Both the position numbers and the translations under genes were made by a program. 64,000 nucleotides of DNA from Raillietiella orientalis (lineage: Eukaryota), in contig JAYWIR010000001.1 in assembly GCA_036172245.1 (NCBI GenBank), positions 10,788,001 to 10,852,000 on the forward strand, given 5' to 3'. Below are positions 6,151-52,549 of this stretch, piece after piece; position 1 is the stretch's first letter, and each line of letters opens with the position of its first letter. The notes under the pieces are model-generated. The model was given only the letters and a program-made list of their open reading frames with translations. It did not search any database and had not been told where the DNA came from.

Positions 6151-7499
6151 GCGGCACGGCGAAGAGCCCGGAGGCGGCGGGAGGAAGGAAAGACATGCCA
6201 CAGAGGTCCGTTCGGTCCCGGAAGGCCGCGTGCCGGGCGCTGCCCCTCTCCTGGGAGCCCGAAAGCGAGCGAGCGCGGACGGATGCCCAGGCGAGGACGG
6301 GGAAGGAAAGAGGATGGCGAAGCAGAGCAGAGCAGCGGCAGGACTGCAGGCAGTGCCGTGTCGCAGTGCGCTCGGGAACTCGGAAGGCCAGGACGCCGGC
6401 GCGCAGGCCCGCGAGGTCGACACGGCGATGCAAGGGAGGAAAAAACGAGCAGGCGCATCCGCTGCAGGATACCGTCAGGTTCCTTTCAGAGGGCTACCGG
6501 CTGAGGCCATCCCGTCTCGGACGCCCTAGGCTTCCACCACGTTCCCGCGGAGGCGGCTGGCACGAAGTAGAGCCTCGCTATGCCCTCAGGGCTGTCTCCG
6601 CCGGAAGCCGGCGAGCTCGGCGGGGGTCGGGGGGCGACGTGGCCCGAGGGCAGGTGCAAGAGAGACTCGATTTCTCCCCCCTGGCCTGTCGACGCCGGCG
6701 GGCATCTCACAGGTGACCCAGGCGTGCGGCGCCAGGAGCGCCGACGCTCCAAGTGGAGGCCGCCTTTAGCACCGCGGGCAGCACCAGGCCTTCCGGGGCG
6801 TCTCCGGGATCCGGGACGAGCGGCTTGAGGTCGCAGCAGTCAGCTGGCCGCCGAAGGGTTCCCCTCGCCGGCAGGTCCTTCTCTTCCTCACAGACATCTC
6901 TAGCCACGCGTCCCCCTCCTTGCTAGGGTTCTCCTCGACGATCCCTCACCTGCCAGAGGGCAGTCGCGCCCTCCCGTCGCCCTCATCGCGAGTCTTACCC
7001 CCTTCCCCGGGCGGACTCCACGAAGGGCTGAGGGAAAAAACTCTCCTGGCTCCTCGCCTCGGCGCCATCGCGGGCCGGCGGGCTGCCCTCTCACGCGTCG
7101 GGTCATCTCCCGGCGCGCTTCCCGGAAGATCCGCACTCTAGGGACAAGTTGCCCCTCCCCCTCCCGGACGTCCACCGCGTCCAGGGATTGAACGTCCCTC
7201 ACCGCGCAACAGCCCCGGACTGAGCAGTCCGGGGGTCGCCGCAGCCGTACTTTCGACCGTGGTCGGCGACTACCCCGAAGTCGGGCGCCGGAAGCGCCGA
7301 CACTTCAGGGAGGGAAGGGGAGGGGCACCATCGGCTCCGCAGGCAGCTGCTGATCTCCAAGAGTTCAACAAAGCAGCTTTTTTGGGAGTGTGATACTCGG
7401 GGTCGCAGCCTCCGCATTAGTTGATGTGGGGATCACCACCACCACCCTCCAGGAGGTTTCCGCAATCCTGCAGGCTCCGTCCCGCCTCGCTAGAGTGCT

Positions 7500-8250: not shown

Positions 8251-8569
8251 TGCCTTCGGGCAGCGCGCAGGGCGAGTCCGTCCGGCGACGCGCTCGTTTC
8301 CGCAACCGCCTGCATCACTGCCGCCCGCCTTCCCGCGTGGCGGAGGACGCGGAGATGTCGTCGCTCTCTCGCCAGGAGACGCGGAAGGGAGTTGCACTTG
8401 ATATGGCAACCATCACACTGCCGTCTAGCGAGTCTGAGCCCTTCTGATCGAGGATTTTATTTTTTTATTTTAAAAAAAGAGTCCGATTGAAGTTTCAGCT
8501 GTGCGAGGTGGAAACCCCGAGCGCAAATACCAACGGCCGGCATCCGCCTTCCCCTCCGTTTTGGAATGA

Positions 8570-9230
8570 TCATCATCCGGTTGTGCCGGGATACTTATTA
8601 CATATAAATATAATAAAAATACATATACATGTGTTAGAACCCTTGGTTCTGCCACGCACAACGAACCTGCCGAGGAGCGGTGGCAGACCGGCGAGGTCCG
8701 GTGGCGTGGGGAGAAGAGAAATAAAAACACAAAAATAAAAAAACAAAACATCGGAGGGGAAATCATACACGGGGAGGGAGGGGGGAGGGAACCGAGGAAG
8801 AGATTACGGTACGCTACCCGGCGTCCTCTGCATCCTGCTTAGGATGCTGGCAAGTCCCGTCTGTATATCCCCCAGGAGGGGGCCAACTCGTAGCGGTCTT
8901 CGGGAAGGTCTGCGTCCATTGGATGGCGTCCCTGTCATTTCGACCTCTTCGGGATTTGCGATCCCGCGAGGACGGCAGAGGACTGCGAGGGATACGACCG
9001 GCGGCAGTGCGGCACCGCACACGTAGAGGAGTTTGAAAATATCCCAGGGGCCGTCTGTCGGAGTTACCAGGATCGTCGCGAAGCGATCCCAAAGGATTCG
9101 GAGTGCGGCATAGTTTAATAGTAGGTGCAGGATGGTCTCCTTGTTCCCGTACCTGCCCCACTTAGCACCCACCCTCCCGTGTCCAGAGGTGAAGGCGCTC
9201 TTGGTACGGGATTTCCCCATGCACCAACAG
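8570..9230 (-). mobile_element. L1/Tx1-like LINE 3' fragment (copy A): ORF2 C-terminus plus T-rich structured 3'-UTR
   Basis: KETILHLLLNYAALRILWDRF...SLAVLC...LASILSRMQRT aligns with the copy B C-terminus (ESFPHPPVDC...LAGILQRMQRT). The UTR shares ggacctcgccggtctgc and tcggcag with copy D. Confidence 0.7.
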
Positions 9231-9367
9231 CAACGCGATTTCCTGCCACTTGAGGAGGAGGGCGCTACTGCCCCAGCACTCTAGAGGCCTCTTCCCTCCT
9301 CCGGAGAAATTACGAGCAGCTCTTCCCTGCATCAGAGTCTGTGGGGTGGGACACTTGGGATCGAAGT

Positions 9368-9434
9368 GTACAGCAGCAAAGAAACTTTTTGACGGGACTC
9401 GTAAACCCGTCAAGAAGTTTCTTTGCTGCTGTAC
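9368..9434. repeat. 29-bp inverted repeat (hairpin, 9-nt loop)
   Basis: gtacagcagcaaagaaactttttgacggg / cccgtcaagaagtttctttgctgctgtac; one mismatch, which is a G-U pair on the + strand. Confidence 0.95.
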
Positions 9435-9799
9435 GGCTTGTCACTTTCCACCTTTCTGAGGTTACGCTGTCCCCTGCATCCTTTAGGGAGGGCGCACCCC
9501 GCCTGCCCCCGCTCCGTGGATCTGTCAGGCAGTGCAGTTCACTGGGAGGCAGGAGATCCGGGTGTTCTCCTCCACCGGGGCAACCATCTGGCGGAGTTGG
9601 CATCCGCAGCGCCTCAGCAATCTCTCGCGAGAGACGTGGAGAGTCCCTCGCAGGCGTATGTGCTCCTCGCAAAGAGATGTGCTGCTCCTCACCGGGACCT
9701 GGCCCATTTGGGAATGATAGAAATTCTTCTTTTCTATCTTCGCTGCTTTCCTTCCAGCTTTTGTTTTGTTTTGTTTTTTTTTAGACTTCTCTTCTTTTG

Positions 9800-12700
9800 G
9801 GTTCGCCAAGTGCTGAGGAACCGTTCTCTTCCTGGAGGGCTCAGGAAGCTCTTTAGCGCTGCCCACGCTACTCGAGGGCGCGTACCCCTCTTCAAGTTAT
9901 GGGGGTCAATTCCGTAGAGAACATCTTATGAATCCATCAGGAGGAAAGGATCCGTTCCTCCCATCTACGCCACTCGAAGGTGCACGTAGCTACAGTTATG
10001 GGATAACCCCGGAGGGAACACCCTATGAATCCAGGAAGCCTCCGGACCAAGGGGTCCGTTCCTTTTACGCTCGGTAAGGAATCCAGAAGGAAACCTTCGC
10101 CCTTCTTCTCTCCGGAGGGGGCTACTCAATTATTTCTCCTCCTCCGGTGCAAAGGACCGCTCCCTATTTTCTCCTCCTCTGAAGGGAACCCCAACGGAAC
10201 TTTCCTGAATTTTCTCTGGAGGGACGCTCCTGAAGGGAGCAGAACGATTCTTTACACTCTGGAGAGGTGTCAATCCACAAGCTCCATGCTACACGATGGA
10301 GGGTCACCCCTCAAGGGAGGAGCGGCTCCGTCTCTACAACCAGAGGGGAATAAACCCAGAAGGGCTTCCTGATTCCTTTAAGGACCCCCGAGGGTCCACT
10401 TTTAATCCCGGACGGCCAACGAGAGTATTTCCGGCTTGAACCAGCGCCGCACCCGTATAGGCCAGCCAGCGTCAACGAGGTGCGCCCTGCGATGCACACA
10501 CGCAACTTATTGATCAGGGAACCGGGAATGGAGACCAGCATGCACCATGTCTTTCTTGATGATCACCTGTACTCCCGTGTGGGCAGGCGCGGCAAGGTAC
10601 CGTCGAAGCTGTCCAATCATTCCCGGATAGAGTTCGAAGTTCAGTCGCGGAACATAGGTCCCCCACTTCGATTGCGTGACGTCTCCCAGGGGACTGGTGA
10701 ACCTCCCTGGAGCTGCGGAACACCTCCTCGAGTTCGTACGGGATTTCACATTGCAGACACTCGAGGACTTGGATCTCTTCAAACGCACGGCCCAAGAGTT
10801 CTGCCAGCAGTTCCTCCTGGACCGCCTACCTGCAGGCTTCGAAGAGCGTGTTCGTAACGAGCGGGCTTATCTGTGCTCCCGTCGTAACAGAACACCCGAC
10901 ATCCGGAAGCTGCAGGAATTGAAGAAGGAGCCGACAGCCTGGCAAGCCTGGCAGTCTGGGTCGGCCAGTCTACTGGACGACAAGGACCGGGAACACTCGG
11001 CTTCCGAACAGGTAAAAGGAATACTACGCAAGTTCTTCTCCTCTCCGTACGCGGGAGCACTTCCCGAGAGGGATTTCGCAAGATTCCTGCTCCCGGAAGG
11101 TGCTCCAGCTCCTGCTGTACAGGAGAGGAGCGCAGGAGAAGCCTCGGCGAGCCTTTCTCGGCCGGTCCGGTGAGACCATCACCGCGATCGGGAAGCTGAA
11201 GAGGCGTAAGGCCCCAGGGAAGGACGGCCTGCCGGCGGAGTTTTTCCAACATGCTTCGCCGCACAGCTGACTTCCCTGGTACAGTAATTAACCTTGCCGA
11301 TAAGCGAAACAGGCGACGTTTCCGCCTCGTTTCTCTCAGCAAGGGTACGCCTCCACCCCCAAGGAGGAGACCTGAGGAGCATGAACAACTGGTGGCCGAT
11401 TGCCGTGGTAAACGCGGACGCCAATTTGCTAGCGAAACAGTGGGCCGAGCGGCTAGGACGGGCGGCAGAAAGCTTCATCAGCTCAAAGAAGTCGCATGCT
11501 GTTCCTGGGCAGAGCATGGACTCCAACCTGCTCTGCGCTAGCACCTGGTTCGCGCTCCTACAAGAAAGGGGCAAGATGGGCAACCGGAATTCCGGAGCGT
11601 GCATCGACCAGGGGCGGGAAGCGAAGGAGGGAGCGGGAGCCGTTGCGGTCGCAGTCGACCTGCAAAAGGCATTCGCCTGCGTCGACCGGGGGCTCCTGGA
11701 GTTGCTGGAACGCTTGGGCTTCTCGGCCGCACTGTCGGCCTGTCTGCGCTCCAACTGGCTCCGAGCGCTCATTAACTAACGCCTCTTTCAGCGAGCGGAC
11801 GGTGTACGGAGTGCCGGTGCGACGCGGTACACGGCAGGGCGACAGCCCGAGCCCTCTGCTCTTTAGCACCTATTTCGAACTGGCGCTGAGAGCATGCAGG
11901 GAGACTCTGGCTCTCCAGCCGCGTGTATGTCCCGGCATGCCTGCCGCCTCAGCATACTCCTGCCGTTGCTGGTCACCATGTACACTGGACGGTCGGTTTC
12001 TTCGAGCTGCTCTGCCGTGGGACTGAAAGAAGGCAAGCTGTGAAGGCAAGGCGAAGTGCAAGGCGGTGTGGCGTGGGCAGGGCGGCCGAACTACATCCGC
12101 CTGGGGATCCCCACGGGACGGTACTTAAAGTACCTGGACGTTCCGTTGGGGGACTTCTGCTCCGCAGAAGCCTGGTCCGGCCGAATCCAGAAAGCATCGC
12201 AGGCGCTCGGCCCGTTCCATAGAGGCAGGTTTCACCTGCCGGAGCGGGACGCTGTGTGCAACACGCTTGTGGCTCCCCTCCTCCGTTCCTTGCTTTTTGT
12301 CTGCCCACCGCCATGCAGCATCGGAAAGCGGACAAAGTACCCCTTCCGGATCGCTCTCTGGCACAAAGGGAGGCCCCGAGTCCGCCTGAAGGACTTGTGT
12401 ACTGCGCTCCGCGACGGCGGCCTAGGCCTTCTGAACTGCAGCTCCAGTTTCGCCCTCGTGGCAAAACTCTGGAGCACCACCTGGTGCCAGCCTGCACGTC
12501 TTTCGTTCAGCAAGCCACCGGCAGCGTGGGACTCGCGTCCTTGCTTGAGCGCCGTGCACGCAGCCTCATCCACGGCGGACTGCACCTGCGGCAGGTGGCT
12601 GCTCTGGAGAGGAAAAGCGCCGAGATCTCGTGCCGCCATCCGCGAAGGGTAGTGTCTGGTTTCAGGGAACCACGTGGGCGAGGATCCGGGAGCCAAGCGC

Positions 12701-13740
12701 GGAACAGGTGCGACGTTCTCTGCACGCGCGTAACAACAACTGCACGCTCCGGGAGATCCTGGAAGATTCTGCGAAGAGTGCATGGGCAAGCAGAGGCTCC
12801 CTCGCTGCCCTTCCTCAGGGAACCCATGGGCATCAGCCTCACGACGAGATGGGAGGTTACCGTGGAAATCTGCGGAAGGAGAAAAGGACTGGGCGAGTGG
12901 ACGACGGGTCAGCTCACCGACGCTGCGACCCCGAGTGCTCGATCTCGTGGGCTTTTGCGCTGGGGCGTGCTACTCGGTATTGCGGAGGAAGACCTGCAGC
13001 GGTCCCGGTGCTCATGAGCACCCGCACCCTCCCCTTAAAGTGGCAGGAGTTGTTGTTGGGGTACTGGGGCCTCCCGTACAGCAACAACTCAACGCCCGCC
13101 GGCATCTGTGGACACGGGTGTGTGTGGACCCAAACTGTGCAAGGTGTGGGGAGCGGGAATCCTTCCCGCACCCCCCAGTGGACTGTGTTGCCCCTGCGAC
13201 CCTTTTGGGGACGCTTGGCCGCTTTTGCCCGTTGGAATCCCCTGACCGCAATGCCAGAGACGTTTTAAAGTCTCTCTTCCCGCGAGACGCCCTCACGCCG
13301 GCCGCATCCCTAGCAGCACTTTGCTGCCTACGCGGCGGGATCGTGACGGCGTGCAGCGGAGCCAACCGAAGAGCCAACGACAGGGACGCCACCCACTTCG
13401 CTCTTCGCTTTCTGCGGATAGCGGTCAGATGGCCCCACCTGCACATCTCCGTGAAACAGGACCTTGCCGGCATCCTTCAAAGGATGCAGAGGACCACCTC
13501 CAGCAGGCTGTGGGACGGAATTGGGAGGATTACTTTCCGTTATCCTCCGAAAATTGTTTTAGTTTTGTTTTGTTTATTTTTCTTTTTGTTTGGGCCCTCT
13601 CCTCTGCTATCGTCCTCACCGGTCTGCAAACCGGTAGCACGGCAGGTTATCTACACGAAGGACGTGGTTGGACCACTGGTCCAACCACAGAAATTGTAAA
13701 TGCTTATTATTTTAAATAAACGCTCTGGCGAATCCGGGAG
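9800..13740 (+). mobile_element. Degenerate L1/Tx1-clade LINE ORF2 (APE endonuclease-RT-zinc finger), copy B
   Basis: Motifs in order: LSNHSRI (SDH, ~10610); KAPGKDGLPAEFF (~11205); NNWWPIAVVNAD; AVDLQKAFACVD; RRGTRQGDSPSPLLF; KYLDVPL; RDGGLGL; CARCGERESFPHPPVDC. Multiple stops and frameshifts, and the YADD motif is lost. AATAAA at 13715-13720. A CCHC-like knuckle (CIRVCGVGHLGSKC, ~9325-9368) may be an ORF1 remnant. Confidence 0.85.
10887..13512 (+). repeat. 2626-bp near-identical inverted repeat, left arm (partner 30523-33148)
   Basis: The ORF track gives identical translations on opposite strands. Only three substitutions were noticed (~11214, ~11360, ~12943). Confidence 0.97.
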
Positions 13741-14300
13741 AAAAACCAGTGTCGTAGCCGATGCCTGCATGCCAGCCAATGTCGCCCCGCGGAAGAGGGA
13801 AGATCGATACCCAACGATGCACCCACCGTTCTCTGCGGTGATCCTTCCTTCCCCGGACGGGATTCGAATTCACGACATCCAGTGCGGCGCGAGGAGACCC
13901 GCAGTCACGCGGCCTCCGGCGCGGGCAGCTCCTCGCTCCCTACGCGGGACCCACTTTGTAGTCCGCTTCTTGAGGACGGCATCGAGATGGCGCCATCCGG
14001 GAAGCACACAGTCCGGACGACTTGCCGGCATCCTTGGACCAGAGATGCAGAGGACGCCTCTAAGCAGGCAGCGATCCCTTCCCGAACTCCCCCCAGGGTT
14101 TTTCTTATTTATTTAGTTTTCTTTATTTAATTTTTCTTTTCGTTCGCTCCTCTTTCCTCCGCTGCCGAGGCGAACCTGCCCTTTTCGCCTGCCAGTCCCT
14201 CGGCAGGTTCTTTGATCAGTGGATGTCGTAGGAGTTACAGTTCTACCACTGCCTTTGCACGTTTCTTGCACATAACAAACGCACCGATGCAACCGGGACG
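13740..14300 (+). mobile_element. Short derivative of the same LINE family (copy C): endonuclease-internal piece fused to ORF2 end and 3'-UTR
   Basis: 13740-13930 aligns with 30310-30120 and ~44990-44840 (reverse). THFVVRFLRTASRW...LAGILGPEMQRT matches the copy B end, followed by a T-rich tract and ctcggcaggttc. Confidence 0.65.
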
Positions 14301-15329
14301 GAAGCAGCTGCCTCAGCGAACAGCAACGGTCGCAGAATTGCCTGCATGAGGAAATTTGAAGGCGATCCCCTCTCCCCCCCCCCCCCAAAGTGGAGACAAA
14401 ACTCTACTTCCTGCAAATGAAAACAGGAACTTCTGAGTTTCCTACTTCTCCTGCCAAGACTGTTATCAACAAGACTGTTAATGCGGACTCATGGAAGCCC
14501 TTCGGTCTGCTACAAGCGCTCATCAATTTGTGATCAGCTCAAGACATTTGGAAATCTTCCGCTTTCGTATGTGCCTTAATTTCCAGTTGTTCTCTTCCTT
14601 AGTGTGACATCACGTGTCATTAGAGTTCCGGTTGCAAGTAATTGCGATTTGCTGCTGATCAGAAGGCAGGGAGATTGCTTTTGTCGAGGATGCACTCGTC
14701 GCACCTTCACGTGCTGCTGCAGCAGCCTTGAGCTACAGAGGCGTTGGAATCTCCCGTGGCTTTCAAAAACGTCCCGAATTGAGCTCGGAGGGAAAACGGG
14801 GAGGCCGAGTTTCAAACATTATCTCGCGTGCAGGATGGGACTAACGTCGTCCATTCACTGTGCACAAATAAATGCTTTTACTTGAAGTAGTAGGGACGAA
14901 CACTGACGTAAGGAATTATTTGCTTTTTGTGGGTGCGCGCACAACGAAATGGACCGGAAAATTCAAGAAAAAGCAGCTCCGTTTATCTTGTTTTCCCTGT
15001 GTGGTGTGTGTGTGTGTTTTGCTCGAAAAATTCTTCCACACTTTTAAACGTCTGAAACTTGGTCCTATAACCTACTTTCTGACCGTAAAACCAAATGTCA
15101 GATTTCGGGGATCCGGGCTGAAACAAAATTTCCGACGGATCATCGACGCATTAGATTTCAGTTCCGCACACGCTGGATGGGTTGCAAGTTTAACTTGGTA
15201 ACCAAGCATGCAGAGTTGCTATGGACGGTGGGTATGCACCAGCTGATTTCCGCAGGAGGCTCAGTTGTCAAATATTTATCCTCTTCCATCCAAGATACAA
15301 AGCGAGTTTATCAGCCGCTGGGCTGAAAA

Positions 15330-18229: not shown

Positions 18230-26744
<8,515 letters not shown>

Positions 26745-30119: not shown

Positions 30120-33100
30120 AGCAAGGTTACCCGTGCTGGAGGCCGTATGGCTGAGGTATCTGCGCGTGCTGGTACCAACGTTTCCGGTTCGAATCCCGCC
30201 TGGGGAAGAGTCGATACCAGAGAAAATGGATACGTCGTGGGTCTCCAGTCCACCATGCACGGTTATGCTAGTTAGCTTATATTCGGCTGCGGCACTGGTT
30301 GACATCCGGTCACGCTGAGACGTTTATTTCTAAACCAACATTTCTGTGGAAGGACGTTTGATTCTGCCACGTTATTTATGAATACGAAAAGGAACCTGCC
30401 GAGATCTCGAAAGCAGGCCAGCAGAGTTCACCTCGTCAGCACAGGGGAAGGGGGGACAAACAAAAGAAAAAAAAAAAAAAAAACTGCAATCAAAAAGGAT
30501 AGGGGGGGGTTCGGGAAGGGATCACAGCCTGCTGGAGGTGGTCCTCTGCATCCTTTGAAGGATGCCGGCAAGGTCCTGTTTCACGGAGATGTGCAGGTGG
30601 GGCCATCTGACCGCTATCCGCAGAAAGCGAAGAGCGAAGTGGGTGGCGTCCCTGTCGTTGGCTCTTCGGTTGGCTCCGCTGCACGCCGTCACGATCCCGC
30701 CGCGTAGGCAGCAAAGTGCTGCTAGGGATGCGGCCGGCGTGAGGGCGTCTCGCGGGAAGAGAGACTTTAAAACGTCTCTGGCATTGCGGTCAGGGGATTC
30801 CAACGGGCAAAAGCGGCCAAGCGTCCCCAAAAGGGTCGCAGGGGCAACACAGTCCACTGGGGGGTGCGGGAAGGATTCCCGCTCCCCACACCTTGCACAG
30901 TTTGGGTCCACACACACCCGTGTCCACAGATGCCGGCGGGCGTTGAGTTGTTGCTGTACGGGAGGCCCCAGTACCCCAACAACAACTCCTGCCACTTTAA
31001 GGGGAGGGTGCGGGTGCTCATGAGCACCGGGACCGCTGCAGGTCTTCCTCCGCAATACCGAGTAGCACGCCCCAGCGCAAAAGCCCACGAGGTCGAGCAC
31101 TCGGGGTCGCAGCGTCGGTGAGCTGACCCGTCGTCCACTCGCCCAGTCCTTTTCTCCTTCCGCAGATTTCCACGGTAACCTCCCATCTCGTCGTGAGGCT
31201 GATGCCCATGGGTTCCCTGAGGAAGGGCAGCGAGGGAGCCTCTGCTTGCCCATGCACTCTTCGCAGAATCTTCCAGGATCTCCCGGAGCGTGCAGTTGTT
31301 GTTACGCGCGTGCAGAGAACGTCGCACCTGTTCCGCGCTTGGCTCCCGGATCCTCGCCCACGTGGTTCCCTGAAACCAGACACTACCCTTCGCGGATGGC
31401 GGCACGAGATCTCGGCGCTTTTCCTCTCCAGAGCAGCCACCTGCCGCAGGTGCAGTCCGCCGTGGATGAGGCTGCGTGCACGGCGCTCAAGCAAGGACGC
31501 GAGTCCCACGCTGCCGGTGGCTTGCTGAACGAAAGACGTGCAGGCTGGCACCAGGTGGTGCTCCAGAGTTTTGCCACGAGGGCGAAACTGGAGCTGCAGT
31601 TCAGAAGGCCTAGGCCGCCGTCGCGGAGCGCAGTACACAAGTCCTTCAGGCGGACTCGGGGCCTCCCTTTGTGCCAGAGAGCGATCCGGAAGGGGTACTT
31701 TGTCCGCTTTCCGATGCTGCATGGCGGTGGGCAGACAAAAAGCAAGGAACGGAGGAGGGGAGCCACAAGCGTGTTGCACACAGCGTCCCGCTCCGGCAGG
31801 TGAAACCTGCCTCTATGGAACGGGCCGAGCGCCTGCGATGCTTTCTGGATTCGGCCGGACCAGGCTTCTGCGGAGCAGAAGTCCCCCAACGGAACGTCCA
31901 GGTACTTTAAGTACCGTCCCGTGGGGATCCCCAGGCGGATGTAGTTCGGCCGCCCTGCCCACGCCACACCGCCTTGCACTTCGCCTTGCCTTCACAGCTT
32001 GCCTTCTTTCAGTCCCACGGCAGAGCAGCTCGAAGAAACCGACCGTCCAGTGTACATGGTGACCAGCAACGGCAGGAGTATGCTGAGGCGGCAGGCATGC
32101 CGGGACATACACGCGGCTGGAGAGCCAGAGTCTCCCTGCATGCTCTCAGCGCCAGTTCGAAATAGGTGCTAAAGAGCAGAGGGCTCGGGCTGTCGCCCTG
32201 CCGTGTACCGCGTCGCACCGGCACTCCGTACACCGTCCGCTCGCTGAAAGAGGCGTTAGTTAATGAGCGCTCGGAGCCAGTTGGAGCGCAGACAGGCCGA
32301 CAGTGCGGCCGAGAAGCCCAAGCGTTCCAGCAACTCCAGGAGCCCCCGGTCGACGCAGGCGAATGCCTTTTGCAGGTCGACTGCGACCGCAACGGCTCCC
32401 GCTCCCTCCTTCGCTTCCCGCCCCTGGTCGATGCACGCTCCGGAATTCCGGTTGCCCATCTTGCCCCTTTCTTGTAGGAGCGCGAACCAGGTGCTAGCGC
32501 AGAGCAGGTTGGAGTCCATGCTCTGCCCAGGAACAGCATGCGACTTCTTTGAGCTGATGAAGCTTTCTGCCGCCCGTCCTAGCCGCTCGGCCCACTGTTT
32601 CGCTAGCAAATTGGCGTCCGCGTTTACCACGGCAATCGGCCACCAGTTGTTCATGCTCCTCAGGTCTCCTCCTTTGGGGTGGAGGCGTACCCTTGCTGAG
32701 AGAAACGAGGCGGAAACGTCGCCTGTTTCGCTTATCGGCAAGGTTAATTACTGTACCAGGGAAGTCAGCTGTGCGGCGAAGCATGTTGGAAAAACTCCGC
32801 CGGCAGGCCGTCCTTCCCTGAGGCCTTACGCCTCTTCAGCTTCCCGATCGCGGTGATGGTCTCACCGGACCGGCCGAGAAAGGCTCGCCGAGGCTTCTCC
32901 TGCGCTCCTCTCCTGTACAGCAGGAGCTGGAGCACCTTCCGGGAGCAGGAATCTTGCGAAATCCCTCTCGGGAAGTGCTCCCGCGTACGGAGAGGAGAAG
33001 AACTTGCGTAGTATTCCTTTTACCTGTTCGGAAGCCGAGTGTTCCCGGTCCTTGTCGTCCAGTAGACTGGCCGACCCAGACTGCCAGGCTTGCCAGGCTG

Positions 33101-33200
33101 TCGGCTCCTTCTTCAATTCCTGCAGCTTCCGGATGTCGGGTGTTCTGTAATGACGGGCGCACAGATTCGCCCGCACGTCACGAGCACCCTCTCCGAAGCC
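30120..33200 (-). mobile_element. L1/Tx1-like LINE copy E (5'-truncated ORF2, 3'-UTR, downstream endonuclease-internal piece)
   Basis: Same RT and zinc-finger motifs as copy B. ORF stop at 30522-30524, T-rich tract ~30458-30483, AATAAA at 30328-30323. GC-rich island within AT-rich DNA. Confidence 0.9.
30523..33148 (-). repeat. 2626-bp near-identical inverted repeat, right arm (partner 10887-13512)
   Basis: Reverse complement of 10887-13512, of equal length. Confidence 0.97.
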
Positions 33201-34674: not shown

Positions 34675-35962
34675 ATGGCATCCTACGTAAAGCCAGGTAA
34701 TTAACAAAAGCATCCATAGTATTTAAGTTGCAATTTGTTGAAAGCAAAGCTTTCTTTTGTGTTTAGAAAATGAACGAAACTGAAATAAACTCTTTAAATG
34801 ACAAAGTTCCCCCCCTTTTTTTTTTTCTTTCATTTTGCAGTTCCTGATTTTAGCATAATTTTTGATAAATACCCTGACAAATCTGTTGGACTTTTAGCAA
34901 TAGAATCAATGTTGGCGTATCTCAAAATTGATACAGGTATATTCAATTTACGATCCAAGTAAATGTAATAGATTTTCAGCAAACACATTGTCTGAATTGA
35001 TGAAAAACTTAGATGCTGTTGTAGCACAATTGAAGATGCAGGACTTATCTGTTTCAGTGATGTCAGGCTGTGAATTATTCCGAAGGTACATAACTTTGGC
35101 ATCTGAACAGTTAGAACAACCAGTTCAGTATAAATCCCTTTGAAAAGCTAATTTATTATTAGACTAGCTTAGGAATGGAGCAGATGCAAGCAAGTGATGA
35201 TATCAAGAGGCGAGAGATTTCTGCTTAAATTAAGTAAATGCAAAGAAAAGATAGCAAGTTTTGCAAATTCTTTCATCCAAGATGGTGCTGTAAGTTGCAG
35301 ACATAGAAATGTTTTAGTTTTCCAGCTATGTTAGCATATCTTAATCCACTCAAAATCCCGAGTTATCCTGCAGTCACTCTTAGTGGCTTCTCAGGAAAAC
35401 AGAAAATTTAACGTTTTTGTAACAGAGTCATGCCCCAACAAAAGTGGGTATGTAATTGTAATTCTGGGAGAGACATGAAGTAAGATCCTATGGTAGGATA
35501 GACATGCAAGCAGCTCTGCAGGAACATGGTATACCATGCACTCTAGTGTTGGATTCAGCAGTAGCCTCTATCATGGAAAGGATTGACTTTTGCCTTGTAG
35601 GTGCTGAAGGTGTAGTAGAGAGTGGTGGAATTATCAACAAGGTACGTGCATCTGAATGTGAAACTCGCTTAATACAATTTAACCATCAGGTGGGCACTTA
35701 TGCCATTGCTTTGTGTGCTCAAGTACTGGGCAAACCTTTTTATGTGTTAGCAGAAAGCTTTAAGTTTGTGAGAAGCTACCCACTCAATCAAGAAGATTCA
35801 GCAAGGGTCTTTGGATACCCAGATTATTTCAATGCAGGAGAAACATGTGCTCATCCCTTAGTGGATTACACACCTCCTGCCTACATTACCCTTCTGTTTA
35901 CTGATTTGGGTATACTGACTCCTTCGGCTGTTAGTGATCGTTTAATACAACTGTATCTCTGA
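34675..35962 (+). CDS. EIF2B1: Translation initiation factor eIF-2B subunit alpha, 7 exons, ~302 aa
   Basis: Exons 34675-34696, 34841-34936, 34980-35122, 35173-35289, 35335-35447, 35497-35641, 35690-35962 (909 nt). Motifs [36 protein letters not shown] and [26 protein letters not shown]. The first short exon is less certain. Confidence 0.95.
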
Positions 35963-43899: not shown

Positions 43900-45560
43900 G
43901 GGGAAGGCGACGATGAAGACGACGTTCCGACCGAAAGGGCCCAGTCGCGGGGGAAGGGGAGGGAGGCGGCAGCAGCTAGGCGTCTCAGGCGCGACTCTTG
44001 CACGGGAGCCGGTTTCCCGGAGTCCGCGCCCATCAGGATGGCATCCGGACTCCTCTTTTCGGGGCACCGAGGTCACTCTCCTCGCTCTGCACGCAGCTGC
44101 TCCCAGCGATGCCCTGGGTTGCGCGAGAGCGGCTGCCCCTTTTCCCAGAGAGTGGGTCTCCCTCGTCCAGCGGCCGCCATTTTCCCGTCAGTATGGTTGC
44201 CACTCGCTCGTGGCCTGGTCTCAGGAGAGGCCTGCCGCATAGGGGGAAGAAGATACGCATCTTCGCGCTGCTGCGGGGGATGGCGGCGGCTATTTGGCAA
44301 GCATCCGGCAAAAGAGTCTCTCTGTTTCCTCCCCGGCTTGGCTCACTTCCTCCAGGTGACTCAGGTGCACGTTCCCTCACTTCCTGCGCCGGGGCGGGCG
44401 GCTCCCCGCTGAGCGTGGATCAGTTGCGCGCACTTTCGCGCTCCCAGCGAAGGCACACAGGTGTGGGGAGAGAGGACCAATCGGCACACATCCTGCTCTG
44501 CGTCGGGGGAAGGGAGGGACTCCGTGGGGCATCAAGGGGCTGCTGCTGGCCTGGAGCCTCCGCGACGCACCAGGAGAGGGAGACGATCATTCGAGAATGC
44601 AGAGGATGCCCCATGAAGAATGCACCTCCGGAGCAGTGCGCTGTTGGATCCGACAGCGGGACGAGACTGCCGACGGCGCGGCCTGGTGCCGAACAATGCC
44701 CTCGGGGGAAATGGGGACGGTAACCTGTCCCCATTTCCCCCGCGAGCAAGAACGCCCATGAGGACGTCCTGCAGAAGCTGCCATTCGGGAGTGTTCTCTT
44801 GGTGGGAGTCGGGAGCACCAGCCAGAGTTCCGACCGCAAGTTGGTCCGCGCTAGCGGCCCGCACGGCCTCCGCTAGCGGCAACAACGGTTGCGGGTTCGA
44901 ATCCCGTCAGGGGAAGAACCGATCCCCACGAGAAATGGGTGCGTCGGGGATTGCGAGCTCCCTCCCCCTTTCACAGAGCGACACTGGTTGGCCCACGGGC
45001 TCCGGGATGCCCCCGTTGACAGACCAGGATGGGGAGTCGACCCTCCAGGGTCCTTCAAGCAATCAAGGAGTACTTCGGGGTTCCCCTCCGATAGTGAAGA
45101 TGGAGTTGGTTCACGCCCATCTCGGGGGGTCGCCTCTCCGGAGTGCAAGGAGCGCCCTACTGCTTTCGGGTAGCGTCCTCCAGGTAAATCGGGAAGTGCC
45201 CTTCAGGGTTCTCTTCAGAGGAGGAAATGAGAAGCGGATCCTTTCCGGGGGTCCCTCCGGAGAGAACAAAGAAGAGCCACCTCTTCCTTGGGGTTCCCTC
45301 CCAAGCGTGAGAGGAACGGAATCCTCACACTGGAGCCTTCCTGGATTCATGGGATCGTTCCCTTCCGGGCTTACCCCCCTAACTTGAAGAGTCACACGCA
45401 TCCCCGGGCGGCGTGAATCGTGTCAAAGAGCTTCATGAGTCCCCCACAAGAAGGCGAGTGGTTCTCTAGCACGTAGCGATCCCCCCCCCCAAAAAAAAGA
45501 AACCGAAAACCAAAAAAAAAAAAAGAAAAGGCCGGAAGGAAAACAGGGAAACAGAAAGAA
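43900..45560 (-). mobile_element. Diverged L1/Tx1-like copy F (5'/endonuclease region and decayed RT)
   Basis: 45480-44930 aligns with 9810-10500 (MNPGRLQCEDSVPLTLGRE vs MNPGSLRTKGSVPFTLGKE; DCLKDPGGST vs DSFKDPRGST). It continues with SADQLAV (SDH-like), PEWQLLQDVL and EGDPLS (~44150). Confidence 0.6.
44703..44742. repeat. 16-bp inverted repeat, 8-nt loop
   Basis: cgggggaaatggggac-ggtaacct-gtccccatttcccccg. Confidence 0.9.
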
Positions 45561-45619
45561 TCCCAGAGGATTTTCATTATCCAGTCGCTCTTCCTCAAGT
45601 TGCACGAGGCGGCGTTGCT

Positions 45620-46305
45620 GGAGGTGCATGAGGGAATCCCGTGTAAAGCGCGCCTTCGCTACTGGACTCAGGGGGGAGCATGAACGCTCAGAGTTGGAGA
45701 GGTTCGGGAAGGAGACTCTCCTGCACGTGTTGTTGGACCGTGCTGCCCTTCGATCCCTTTGGGATCGCCTCGCGGCTGCCCTAGGAATCCCGGCAAGAGG
45801 CCCCAGGGACATTTTCTCAGACGCCTCTTCGCGTGCGATGCCGCACTGCCGCCGCCAGCCGCGCCCCCTCGCAGTTCCCTCCTGGTTGTCTCCGCGGGAT
45901 CGCGGCGGTCTGGAACGCCAGGAGAAGAGGCTGAAATGCAGAGACGCCGTCCACTGGGCACGGAAGACCCTCCTCCTCCTGAAGACCTCTCTAAGATGGG
46001 CCTCCCTGGAGATCATACGGAACGATCATACGCCTCAGCATCATGGGTGCAAAGGACGCCTGGCAGCGTACTGTATGATCCCCTCCTCGATTCCCTCCCC
46101 CCCTTTCCCATGTAAATCCTTCCCTCCCCTATTTTGTTTGTTTATTTTTTTATGTTTTATTTTCCCCTCCCCCACCGCTGCCGAATTGGACCTCGCCGGT
46201 CTGCGCACCTCTTCGGCAGATTCGTTGCGCGTGGCAGAAACAACGGTCCTACCACACCATTGTATTTTTATTACGTTATGTAATAAATGCCCCGACATAA
46301 CCGGG
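45620..46305 (+). mobile_element. L1/Tx1-like LINE 3' fragment (copy D)
   Basis: FGKETLLHVLLDRAALRSLWDRL...GPRDIF...DAVHWA aligns with copy A. T-rich structured UTR with AATAAA at 46282-46287. Confidence 0.7.
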
Positions 46306-48249
46306 AGATAATCCTACCACTCGCGGTCAGAACTCGTGGGTCGGTGCAACCTGCAAGGATTGGATGGAAACGGTGTCTTTATCCGGGAATGCGTTCGTTG
46401 CATCTTTCCGTGGCATCTCGAGGTTCTCCTTCCATTCCTTCCCAACGGGAATACTGGGCATGTCAACGGAAGTCCAGGACCGTCGCCAGCACGTGTGTTA
46501 TGCGTACAAGCCCCTGCTTCCTTCCTCTTGTGAGCAGCTGCTGCGTGTTGCCGCCACGAGGAGAGCGCGCGCTCCACGCGCTGGCTTCGAAGATGTCCTT
46601 CCAGAGTCTTCCCACGAGTGACGATCGCCGCTGAATGGTTCCTTCGCTTCCTCGAGACGGGAACGCGCACACACGCGAAGAGGAGTGCTCTGCACTATCC
46701 TCGACGGGAGCGCTGTTCCCCGGTTCGGTAGGAAACGTCTTCCCGGGAGCACCGGGCAGGCCTGCATGGGGTGGACGCTCCAGAACCTCATCGGAGCTAT
46801 CGGAGCGGCTCCTGGAGCTTCCGTGCGCATCTCCCTCACCAGCCTTCGCAGTGCAGCAAATTGGATCGGTTGCTGCTGCTGCGTTTCGCATGGAAATTCC
46901 ACCCATTTCCAGGGATGATTTCTGGTAATGATGCCGCCGTCGGAAATGGCTCTTGATTACGGGAGGCAACGCCTGGGAAGGCGAAAAATGCAGCGTCCGA
47001 CGCAGGCACAGCGATAAAGCAGCCGCGCAGAGATAAAACTTTTTTTTTTCTGTTCTGAGGGAAAAATGAATTTCTCGTTCGATTTTCGCAGCTCTCGATC
47101 CCCAGACTGAATGGAGGATGTTCAGATTTCATTGAATCTGTAAGTCTCATTTATTCCATTGATTCATTTCGGAGGCTGCTTTGGCAGAGTTCGGGATGCA
47201 ATGATCTGTTTGTGCACTTGCGGATAACCAGAGAAAAAAAATCTATTGGGATGTTATTCTCATTATCTCTGTGGGATCTTTGCACCCGGTCGCATGCATG
47301 TGGGCCATGCCGCCTTCAATGATAACGTGAGCTCTTGATAACTCTGGTATCTATCCAAGCGTCTGAAAAGCACAATGGCTGAAATGAGGTTTTCTTTTGT
47401 TCTCCTGTCTGCGCTCCTTGAAGAACCACTTCAGGTGGTGAAAAGACATTGCACGTACCAATCATTTTCCATGCATTATTCAAGCACGAAACTTTCAACC
47501 CCTTTAACCAAACAAAACCCTAATCTTCACATGAAGAATTCACTCTATTTCCTTCTCCACCTAGAGTTCTTCTTATCACTGAATAAAGATGTATTTTTCT
47601 AAGAGCCTCTAATAGAGCATGTTATTGTTTGTTTTGTGTGTGTCTTTTAGAGAAAAGCAAAGACAAATTCAGATATCGAGCTCGAAATTTCGTTGTCGTT
47701 ATTGTTTTTAACAAAAAGCAAACGCTAACTCCGCAATGGTTTGAACAGCACCATCATTTCAAACAGAACCATTCAACAACTTTGGTATTTCGAATGCCTT
47801 CAAATATTCCGCTTTACCTTTAAATAAGAATATTAAATTTTAAATACGTGTTTCAACCGGTGAAAGAGTGAAGGCTTCTGGCAAGCGTGCTTGGGAAGCG
47901 CGTGACATCATCGCCATTGCCGTTTCGCTAGCGTCTGTGTAAAAATTCGAGGGTCCAGAAACCAAATCTGCTTCTGAATCCACCGGGGATGCCCACAGCA
48001 AGGCTCGGTTGCGATCCCCGCGTCTCCACCTTCAAGCGCGGAAGATTTTCGCCAATATTTTCGCTTGTTTCGCCTTTCATTGCGTGTGGAATTCCGAGCG
48101 ACTAATTTTTTTTTCTTTCTTTTGTGCCTCAAATCAATTTCTCTTTTCATTTCAAGGAGCATACGAAACCACGAGGGAGCCAGCAGTAGTGTCCCATCAA
48201 GCAGGGTGAGTCTGTGAAGATGATTCCGATCTCACAATGGTTCGCGCGG

Positions 48250-50000: not shown

Positions 50001-52549
50001 TGGCTCTTGTGCAACCAGCTCTGCGGATCCGGTTCGAACCGGAAGTCACGTGACTTTGTGACGCTTTTCCTCGAGACCTAAGAGGGTGCTGGCCTTGTAT
50101 CCGTTTCTTCGTAGGATGGCGGCTTTCCGCTCTCGACGTTCCCGCCAGGTCGGTCTTGCAGCTAATCGGCTCCGGTTTCCACGCAGCCCCTCTTTATCGG
50201 GAGCAGCGAGCGTTTCCTTTCCGGCACAGTCGCTCTCGACGGGCGAACGCGCGTCGTCCGTAGCCGGAGGGAAGGCTGTGCCTCGACTTTCCCGCTCCGA
50301 GGACTCTCGAAACCCACGCGACGCACTCCCCCTCCCCCCCCCTTCTTCCTGCCTCCGCAGCTTCTGATGCGCCTGGCGCACCAGACGCAGCACTTCCACC
50401 AGCCCGCGAGCAGGAACCTGGAGGAGCGACGTGCCTGGAACGCATGCCGCCCGTGGCGATTTCACGTGGAGAACGCGCGCCTCCAGGTGCCATAAATGGC
50501 GGAATGCATACTCAGATAAGCCTCTTCTGCCGAAGACGCGCAGCTCGAGCGATCCATTAAGAGGAGAGGCGCTTCCGGGGAAACACGAGCCAGCCTGCAT
50601 TCTGAGTGCTCCTCCGCGTTTCCCGGGACCGCTCTTCGCTGCCTCTCGTCACGGTCTTCGCCGGCGACGGCTGGATGGTAGATGCTCGGACGAAGTGGCT
50701 GGGGGCAAAAAGCAGGGCTTGAAAGCAGAGACCTGGGGGCATATGACCCCGACTGGAAGCTCGAGCAACTCTCCTGGCAACTCCCCTTTTCAACTCTTTC
50801 TCTTCTCGATTGTGCAGCAGGAGAGCGCGGATTTTTTAGCTGATGTCTTTCGAGACACGACATCCCGGGGCAATTGCAGCTTCCCCTCATCCTCTTTGAG
50901 AGTTTGGGTCCCTTAGCGCGATGCGAGCTGCGGGTGTTGACGGTCTATCAGCTGGGCGAGGAGCAGGGCAGTTCGCTTTGAAGGTCGGCACGCACCGCCG
51001 ACGGCTTCGGACTACCTCGACCGTCGCTCTTTTGACTGTGCGGCTGCAGCTGCGATGGGTCGAGGCGAGGCGAGAAGTCTCCCCTCCCTCCTCCCCGGCA
51101 AATCTTCCGAATGGGAGAGCTGGACTCATCCCCACGCCTTCCCCAAAAATCTGAGGTGACGCGCGTTTCGGTCGCTCCCGTGTGAAATCGAGGAAGCGGC
51201 CGAGCGGAGACCCTGAGAGGGAAACTCGCGTAGGGCTGGAAGAAGTGAGGCGAGTACGGCAGCAACGGAAGAGTAACCTCTTCCGTTGCTGACGCACTCG
51301 CTCCGCGTCATCCGACGGAGGCGACGACGTGACAGCCTGCGGGCGTGTCTTTCCCCCGCCTCTCCAGGGAATGCGTGACCGAAGCAGATTCGCCACCACG
51401 CTGGGTCGGAGCAGCCAGAGCAGCGGCCTCTGCGACGAAATTTTCCTCTGGAGGCAACGAGCGCGCAGCTGGGGGAGGAGACGAAGGGAAACGAACTCCG
51501 CTGCTCGGCAACGGGATGCCTTCTGCTCCGGGAGCCCGGGACGCCGCGAATCTCCCTCCTCGCGCGGGCGAAGGTGTGTTCCAAGGTCGAGACTTGCTCG
51601 GGTCCGCAGAGGGTCGAACAAATCTCACTGCACCTCTGCAGAGAGGGAGGTAGGAGGAGAAAGGAGAGAAGAGGAACTGTCGTTGGTGATTGAGCAGTGA
51701 GCATCGACGACCGCCGGTTACACGCGTTTTCTCCTCCCAGGGTTGCCGGAAGGACCAGCAGACTCTCCTAAGTTCGGATCACGGGAACGTCTGAGGTGGG
51801 CAAGTTTCCATGACAACCTCCCTTCCCTTTCCCCTTCTCCGTGGGGCGAAGATGGGGAAGAAAAGCGGAAAAATATCGAACTAGACTCGTGCTGGTCCTG
51901 TTCGAATGAAGCTGTGTCCGGAGCAGCTGGTTTATCGGCACATCCCTCGCGCGTTGCTTGAGCTCCCAGAGGCGCGAGGAAGGACCTGCCCTAAAGGAAC
52001 TGGGACACCGCTCACCCCCTGGGACGATCCTCAGGGACGAGCAGGAGTCGCAAACCATCTCCTTATCCCTCCTCCTTCTTCTCCTGTTTCAGGGGAAAGT
52101 GCGGAAGAAAACGGTCGGACGCGTCGGGCTGAGCACGAAGGTGGCGCAGTCCAGAGGCTGCAGAAGAGCTGCGGGGCTTCTTGCTCCAATGGATGGCGTT
52201 ACCGCCTGAGGACGGCAGAACCGACCTCTGGACCGTTTTTCATTGCAGGCTTTTGCTGCGTCTTACTCCAACAAGGTATCGCTGCCCTGTCGTCATGGGA
52301 ACCGGAGAGCGTCGGCTTCGGAGACGGCTCCGCGTCTTACTTCAGGGTAGAGGAGGAGCAAGGGAGCTGGGGGTAGGCGCTTTCTGGAGCGCAGACCCTT
52401 TCGACCCTCAGAGTGTGGCAGCCGGATGCAGTCGCGGCCGAGGTCGGCTGTCGGTCGGCCGCGGACTCTTGGCGGCTCGCTGCGGGGGAGAGGGAGCCTT
52501 CTGCGGTGGCCGGCTACGCCGCCCGAGGAGGGAAGGCAGGAGGAGGATG

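Follow-up and report, generated by a model that had tools for sequence, protein, structure and literature searches.

Two LINE copies in this stretch of DNA end without a poly(A) tail and are followed by the same short segment. The question is what that segment is and how two LINEs came to be joined to it. The window analysed is 64,000 nt of Raillietiella orientalis contig JAYWIR010000001.1, and positions are window coordinates unless a locus number precedes them. The first-pass annotation took the segment to be part of the family's own endonuclease gene. It proposed either that the family inserts into its relatives or that a chimera of 3' UTR and endonuclease was amplified as a unit. The two LINEs, B and E, are read here as independent targeted insertions into one fixed site of a tRNA-like SINE, in antisense orientation (probability about 0.9). 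The window contains the following features.

8556..8570, minus strand: 3' target-site duplication of LINE A, with 13/15 bases identical to 9704-9718
8571..9703, minus strand: LINE A (A/D lineage), 5'-truncated, in sense, directly after the SINE 3' tail
9704..9718, minus strand: 5' target-site duplication of LINE A, beginning in the ATCAT tail of the SINE
9719..10474, minus strand: body and tail of the SINE split by LINE B (model positions about 145-790, nhmmer)
10440..10474, plus strand: duplicated target at the 5' junction of LINE B, starting ACCAG; the last 6 nt overlap the start of the LINE
10469..13744, plus strand: LINE B, 5'-truncated within the endonuclease, with a decayed ORF2 and a B-type 3' UTR
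13715..13744, plus strand: AATAAA signal and conserved tail-less terminus of LINE B, with CCGG at 13734-13737
13745..13926, minus strand: 5' head of the SINE interrupted by LINE B (model positions 2-176); the junction is CTGGT on the SINE strand
13949..14303, plus strand: LINE C, a short copy of another lineage, adjoining the SINE 5' end
30128..30299, plus strand: SINE head downstream of LINE E, with a junction identical to that of LINE B
30300..33200, minus strand: LINE E, with an E-type 3' UTR and a 5' end without SINE body
44844..45579, plus strand: uninterrupted SINE (model positions 2-802)
45588..46310, plus strand: LINE D (A/D lineage), 5'-truncated, in sense, directly after a SINE tail; its duplication is degenerate

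All five LINE 3' ends in the window (A, B, C, D and E) were free of poly(A), as had been annotated. Each carried the CCGG motif, a terminal motif of about 25 nt after an AATAAA-like signal. The motif precedes unrelated flanks at many loci and is therefore the LINE's own terminus. The joining of 3' ends to a common segment held for B and E and failed for A, C and D. The segments downstream of B and E were homologous to each other (z 11, score reached by 0/300 shuffles) and to 44840-45005 (z 12 and 16, likewise 0/300), in agreement with the annotation. The latter region is the head of the uninterrupted SINE copy. A further similarity claimed for 10430-10530 was weak: 10400-10640 gave z 1.0 with B and 3.9 with E, and the match seen by eye was confined to 10440-10474. 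The identification as endonuclease DNA was not borne out when six endonuclease/ORF2 DNA stretches were compared on both strands. The segments downstream of B and E, the stretch D5 and 10430-10475 gave z ≤2.6, and the positive contrast, 10470-10650, scored z 18-29. The endonuclease sequence of LINE B begins at about 10469, and 10440-10474 is duplicated SINE target, which was taken for endonuclease because LINE B is truncated inside that domain.

On the opposite strand the downstream segment is the 5' head (about 180 bp) of a dispersed repeat of about 800 nt. The repeat was aligned from 21 uninterrupted loci and window copy 44844-45579 (22 copies). It has a sharp 5' boundary and CAT/ATC short repeats at the end of its tail. 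The B box is its best-conserved part among the 22 copies, and in the head next to LINE B the tRNA-like B box lies at about 13860-13871. The head aligned to tRNA-Asp, tRNA-Arg(CCT) and tRNA-Glu of the same genome at z ~7 (40 of 62 tRNA matches were tested). A tRNA-His origin was rejected on its low alignment score. ARAGORN predicted 0 tRNA genes in 42 SINE loci, and Rfam gave only one sub-threshold tRNA-Sec match on the SINE loci (E 9.5). The name "tRNA-like SINE" was chosen because the tRNA alignment reached z ~7 yet ARAGORN and Rfam made no tRNA call. By its sequence the repeat resembles SINE2 elements in the fixed 5' end, the short repeat tail and the dispersed high copy number. Twenty strong matches made up 2.1% of a 400-kb sample, which was drawn from 40 contigs at fixed positions and whose small size gives small counts. 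Uninterrupted targets, which the annotation had advised looking for, were common: the SINE was intact in 21/29 non-window loci. No target-site duplication of the SINE itself was evident by eye, the LINE 3'-end model gave no match in the SINE body in the window, and the folds of the two window SINE heads were of ordinary stability (z ~0 and 0.4). Folding of the LINE 3' UTRs gave z -2.9 for B but 0.15 for E, so no shared 3' UTR structure is claimed. Near a SINE copy, L038 719-1001 (-) matched the metazoan SRP RNA model of Rfam with 76 bits, which exceeds the cut-off.

Further E-type copies were collected with a flank-blind query, the 3' UTR of LINE E without its terminus or flank. This gave 39 non-window matches from 769 candidates, which are the best-scoring copies rather than all copies. 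The SINE head followed in antisense from one junction in 36/39 of these best-scoring copies. The exceptions were L201 and L204, which are off-target, and L224, which retains about 15 nt of the target. The chance of this junction per LINE end, estimated from the fixed-position 400-kb sample, is about 3.4e-4. In that sample 2/7 complete LINE ends lay at the junction, and both belonged to the 3 E-type ends present. The annotation was right in seeing a site-specific L1/Tx1-like LINE whose junction is fixed. The B-type set, obtained with the LINE B 3' UTR, comprised 39 non-window matches from 451 candidates, again the best-scoring rather than all copies, and included two 3'-truncated matches and two duplicate pairs. 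The SINE junction was present in 13/39 by model match, or 14/39 with L027 added by eye. In a tree of 115 3' ends the E-type, B-type, Y, W, A/D and C lineages came apart. The clades of E and B were distinct, lineages free of the SINE stood between the two, and SINE-linked and free B-type copies were interleaved. The E lineage is nearly strict for the SINE site and the B lineage only prefers it. No intact ORF2 of either type was found.

The 5' ends of the E-type copies bear on how the junction arose. Eight of the 39 copies reach the edge of the fetched stretch and 31 have a visible 5' end. In 24/31 the SINE body lies directly upstream. These 24 copies are truncated at 22 different points, or at 18 when those lying within 5 nt of each other are counted as one, and the points span 11789 to 13563 in LINE B coordinates. 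The remaining 7/31 are without an upstream SINE body, and two of them are the off-SINE insertions. The target-site duplications that the annotation suggested looking for were found. They start ACCAG and have a median and mode of 15 nt (range 5-19, n=23 loci); lengths were taken from model coordinates, and automatic calls were noisy, several being mis-anchored. Matched 5' and 3' duplicates shared 8 non-consensus bases compared to 2.9 in permutations (p=0.005). This anchored test used 21/24 pairs, with L219, L221 and L229 dropped for weak anchors; L215, whose SINE body stops at position 222, was excluded from the length and permutation tests. Around a copy of about 4.2 kb (L068, L209) the two duplicates, 17 nt each, are identical. 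The linked SINE heads were 65-69% identical among themselves and 68% identical to free heads, which were 70% identical to each other. The LINE ends joined to the linked heads were 80-83% identical. Distances among LINE ends and among heads, a counterpart of the tree comparison that the annotation had proposed, were uncorrelated in the E type (Mantel r 0.06, p 0.32, n=28).

These results were weighed against amplification of one ancestral chimera of LINE 3' end and SINE head as a unit, whether as a composite or by habitual 3' transduction. The head is present without a SINE body upstream in window LINE E, in L199, L212 and L227, and in the B-type copies L003, L006, L021 and L026. Some SINE heads end early (L003, L020, L022), and a minority of copies could be read-through transductions. 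As a general account the chimera is nevertheless very improbable, since 24 differently truncated copies lie between both SINE halves, paired duplications have private variants in common, and the same junction is used by two separate LINE clades. The linked heads also diverge as much as free heads do and fail to track the LINE distances. The composite unit of the first-pass annotation was accordingly given up. Repeated targeted insertion is preferred because both SINE halves, varied truncation and duplications are found together and the linked heads are as unlike each other as free heads.

Self-targeting by B and E of endonuclease-coding DNA in their own family is harder still to credit. It draws on the target-like stretch just before the endonuclease sequence at 10440-10474 and on a sibling lineage, Y, whose copies sit antisense in the ORF2 of a relative (9/9 non-tandem flanks). 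The downstream segment is nevertheless unlike intact endonuclease/ORF2 DNA. It forms the head of a repeat of about 800 bp that is dispersed and stands uninterrupted at most non-window loci. The target of B and E is thus the antisense tRNA-like SINE and not their own endonuclease gene. A loose preference for a short motif (ACCA/ACT-like), with the abundant SINE acting as a hot spot and no dedicated targeting, gains from the off-SINE insertions, which often open with ACCA(G) or something close to it (L016, L017, L120, L201, L204), and may describe the B lineage. For the family it is highly unlikely. The SINE site (about 13 per 400 kb) is far rarer in the genome than the 5-nt word, and the E-type copies nonetheless sit at the SINE site in 36/39 cases and in a single orientation. 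The ACCA(G) starts of off-target E and B copies fit either a core nuclease preference or bases from RNA read-through.

Within the window, LINE B fits an insertion that split a SINE, with the body at 9719-10474, the target from 10440, the LINE at about 10469-13744 and the head at 13745-13926. Its duplicated target is about 35 nt, above the modal 15, and the two copies differ by an indel. The decayed ORF2 retains the end of the endonuclease, the reverse transcriptase and the C-terminal zinc motif. LINEs B and E were 99.5% identical over 2678 bp (10835-13512 / 30523-33200), with 3 mismatches after 10886. The two copies are inverted and 17 kb apart, and they share this near-identical tract yet have 3' UTRs of different lineages. 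Recent gene conversion may account for the tract, as may an inversion of the DNA between the two copies or an assembly artefact. The 5' duplicate of LINE B is nearer to the head variant of LINE E than to B's own (z 3.9 vs 1.0), which an inversion would fit. Assignment of the tract to a lineage was attempted and gave no decision (73.1% to E-type vs 72.3% to B-type).

Other lineages use other sites. For the A type, 20 of 39 main non-window matches were picked as likely truncated; 7 of these were still inside the LINE, leaving 13 visible 5' junctions. Nine followed a SINE-tail match, 2 were tail-like by eye, 1 came after the SINE body and 1 was neither. The A/D lineage uses the ATCAT tail of the SINE in sense orientation. 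LINE C has a possible duplication of about 10 nt (13925-13934 / 14304-14314) as a single case at the SINE 5' boundary. No convincing further C-like insertion at the SINE 5' end was found in 51 flanks searched with no C-specific reference. Lineage Y lies antisense in the ORF2 of sibling Z just after the endonuclease, its non-tandem flanks ending at nt 870-881. Its bodies were 95.9% identical and the flanks 82.8%, with a 15-nt duplication (loci L091-L109, e.g., L095 2455-8022). Copies in tandem Y arrays are separated by the 15-nt duplication. Y is a young lineage with open ORFs in L097 and L102, and Z has open frames in L099. Because Y inserts in a sibling ORF2, self-family targeting does exist in this genome, though not for B and E. 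Zepp/ZeppL elements reportedly insert into pre-existing copies. Lineage Y2 also lies in this antisense sibling ORF2, where it ends about 90 nt upstream of the Y site (L095 2300-2455; L102 299). Lineage W 3' ends were followed by antisense DNA coding for the reverse transcriptase motif KAFD in 2 clear cases and 1 weak case of 6 tested (L100:1153, L110:9306, L136:5495).

The open-frame siblings encode an ORF1 with two CCHC knuckles and an ORF2 with an APE endonuclease, a reverse transcriptase and a C-terminal zinc motif. Over 10500-11400, window LINE B and these copies have about 72% identity. L097 has an open frame of 1173 aa. Sibling L095 matched PF03372 (E 3.5e-15) and PF00078 (E 3.5e-17), and its match to PF13966 (E 0.0017) was below the cut-off of that family. 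ORF1 has two C-X2-C-X4-H-X4-C motifs and no Pfam match; its look-alikes in the atlas carry zf-CCHC in about 51% of members (score 0.94). An ORF1 with CCHC zinc knuckles is typical of Tx1-like elements and not exclusive to them. The 65 homologs were 22-30% identical and mostly unnamed, with no labelled Tx1 reference among them. The 5'-truncated copies flanked by target-site duplications are an L1-group trait. On its proteins the family is an L1-group LINE, which may belong to either the L1 or the Tx1 clade. In the available text of Kojima 2015 (PMC4494074) target preference is recognised where one repeat type occurs in >20% of flanks. The values here were 36/39 for E, 13-14/39 for B and 9/13 visible 5' junctions for A/D, all above that level.

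The target site of B and E lies about 176 nt into the abundant tRNA-like SINE, and insertion is always antisense to it. By standard target-primed reverse transcription, the ORF2 endonuclease would nick 3' of CTGGT on the sense strand of the SINE. The end freed by this nick would prime on the 3' terminus of the LINE RNA, and a second nick about 15 bp away would make the target-site duplication. The betaB6-betaB5 hairpin of the endonuclease is thought to be the target reader in L1, Tx1L and R1. In the present family the catalytic residues are invariant and the region is short. The GDFN-to-SDH span was 60-63 aa in four lineages, a decayed E-type copy included, compared to 79-101 aa in relatives (55 measurable of 150 library representatives, the other 95 being too short or without an anchor motif). 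The short endonucleases at L097 6390-7091 (-), L099, L093 and L068 are about 20 aa below all measured relatives in this region. The inner segment from GDFN to (R/S)ID was 38-40 aa in three lineages vs 44-63 in 29/29 homologs. The predicted structure (mean pLDDT 88.9, falling to 52-70 over residues 161-180) has a helix at 168-178, a short strand and then directly a strand at 197-202, with no hairpin. Its closest solved fold was the human LINE-1 endonuclease (PDB 1vyb, 8sp7; TM ~0.75, E ~2e-16). The hairpin is predicted to be absent, as judged by length, alignment and secondary structure rather than by residue-level superposition. Lineage Y, despite its short endonuclease, appears to have spread recently with regular duplications. 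In L1, deletion of the loop abolished most activity and altered specificity, according to the available text of PMC1950540.

About 20 residues are missing where L1 has its minor-groove hairpin, so target recognition probably falls to other surface loops of the endonuclease or to pairing between the RNA 3' end and the target. A wider proposal is a radiation of site-specific LINEs that share a hairpin-less endonuclease, each with its own fixed site and with specificity set elsewhere. It is offered tentatively and is rather doubtful. If it is true, the fixed sites would be two in one SINE and others in sibling ORF2s. A few bases of the RNA 3' end would possibly pair with the nicked target, and the target could then be switched through the RNA sequence. 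With its short endonuclease, the family allows the accepted role of the hairpin to be tested directly. The related lineages with different targets, including Y with open frames and about 96% identity, form a natural series for the gain or switch of specificity.

The nearest parallel is the Tx1-Mar LINEs, found with SINEU in Mariner-N4_AMi of crocodilians (Kojima 2015, PMC4494074). As far as the available part of that paper describes them, they also use fixed sites in another dispersed repeat, with different families at different sites of Mariner-N4. One site, at ~240, lies near the 5' part and is used in antisense, and the other, at ~830, lies near the 3' part and is used in sense. Their tandem copies sandwich the target-site duplication, as do the present LINEs. 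Their target is a DNA transposon, whereas here it is a tRNA-like SINE (~176 antisense, ~800 sense) and a sibling ORF2. Tx1L (in Tx1D of Xenopus), Keno (U2 snRNA) and Kibi and Koshi (microsatellites) likewise combine APE and reverse transcriptase with repeat targets in the same text, but those targets differ from the SINE and sibling ORF2. The ATCAT-tail site of A/D resembles the microsatellite targeting described there for Kibi and Koshi. The Tx1L endonuclease has an 11-residue betaB6-betaB5 hairpin in the available text of PMC1950540, and the matching segment here is about 20 residues shorter. The nested L1-type Zepp/ZeppL clusters of green algae, as described in the available part of bioRxiv 10.1101/2025.03.28.645958, are like the nesting of lineage Y. 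That likeness is limited to Y, as B and E target the SINE. Human LINE-1 is similar in endonuclease fold and retained catalytic residues. It differs in that the present LINEs lack a poly(A) tail, do not target T-tracts and have CCHC knuckles in ORF1. A literature search that covered neither Repbase, most subscription journals nor the target-listing supplement of PMC4494074 found no SINE-targeting LINE, and the available text of PMC5786205 and PMC3747384 held nothing on SINE targets. A search with similar journal coverage found no hairpin-less retrotransposon endonuclease. Site-specific LINEs are known, and a SINE target together with a short DNA-contact region of the enzyme appears uncommon. 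With counts from across the genome, the present data add a SINE to the landing sites of target-specific LINE integration.

A number of other features were seen in the window. Self-BLAST showed short imperfect palindromes at 9368-9434 (within LINE A), 44697-44748 and 51250-51301. ARAGORN called a 96-nt tRNA-His at 7115-7210 (-) in GC-rich DNA, which is possibly spurious. Host exons of CYFIP/FragX_IP were found at 25115-26071 (+) (PF05994, E 3e-83) and an exon with an eIF2B-alpha-like IF-2B domain at 35462-35962 (+) (PF01008, E 8e-32). Both host-gene exons lie in an AT-rich block that has GC-rich blocks of repeats on either side.
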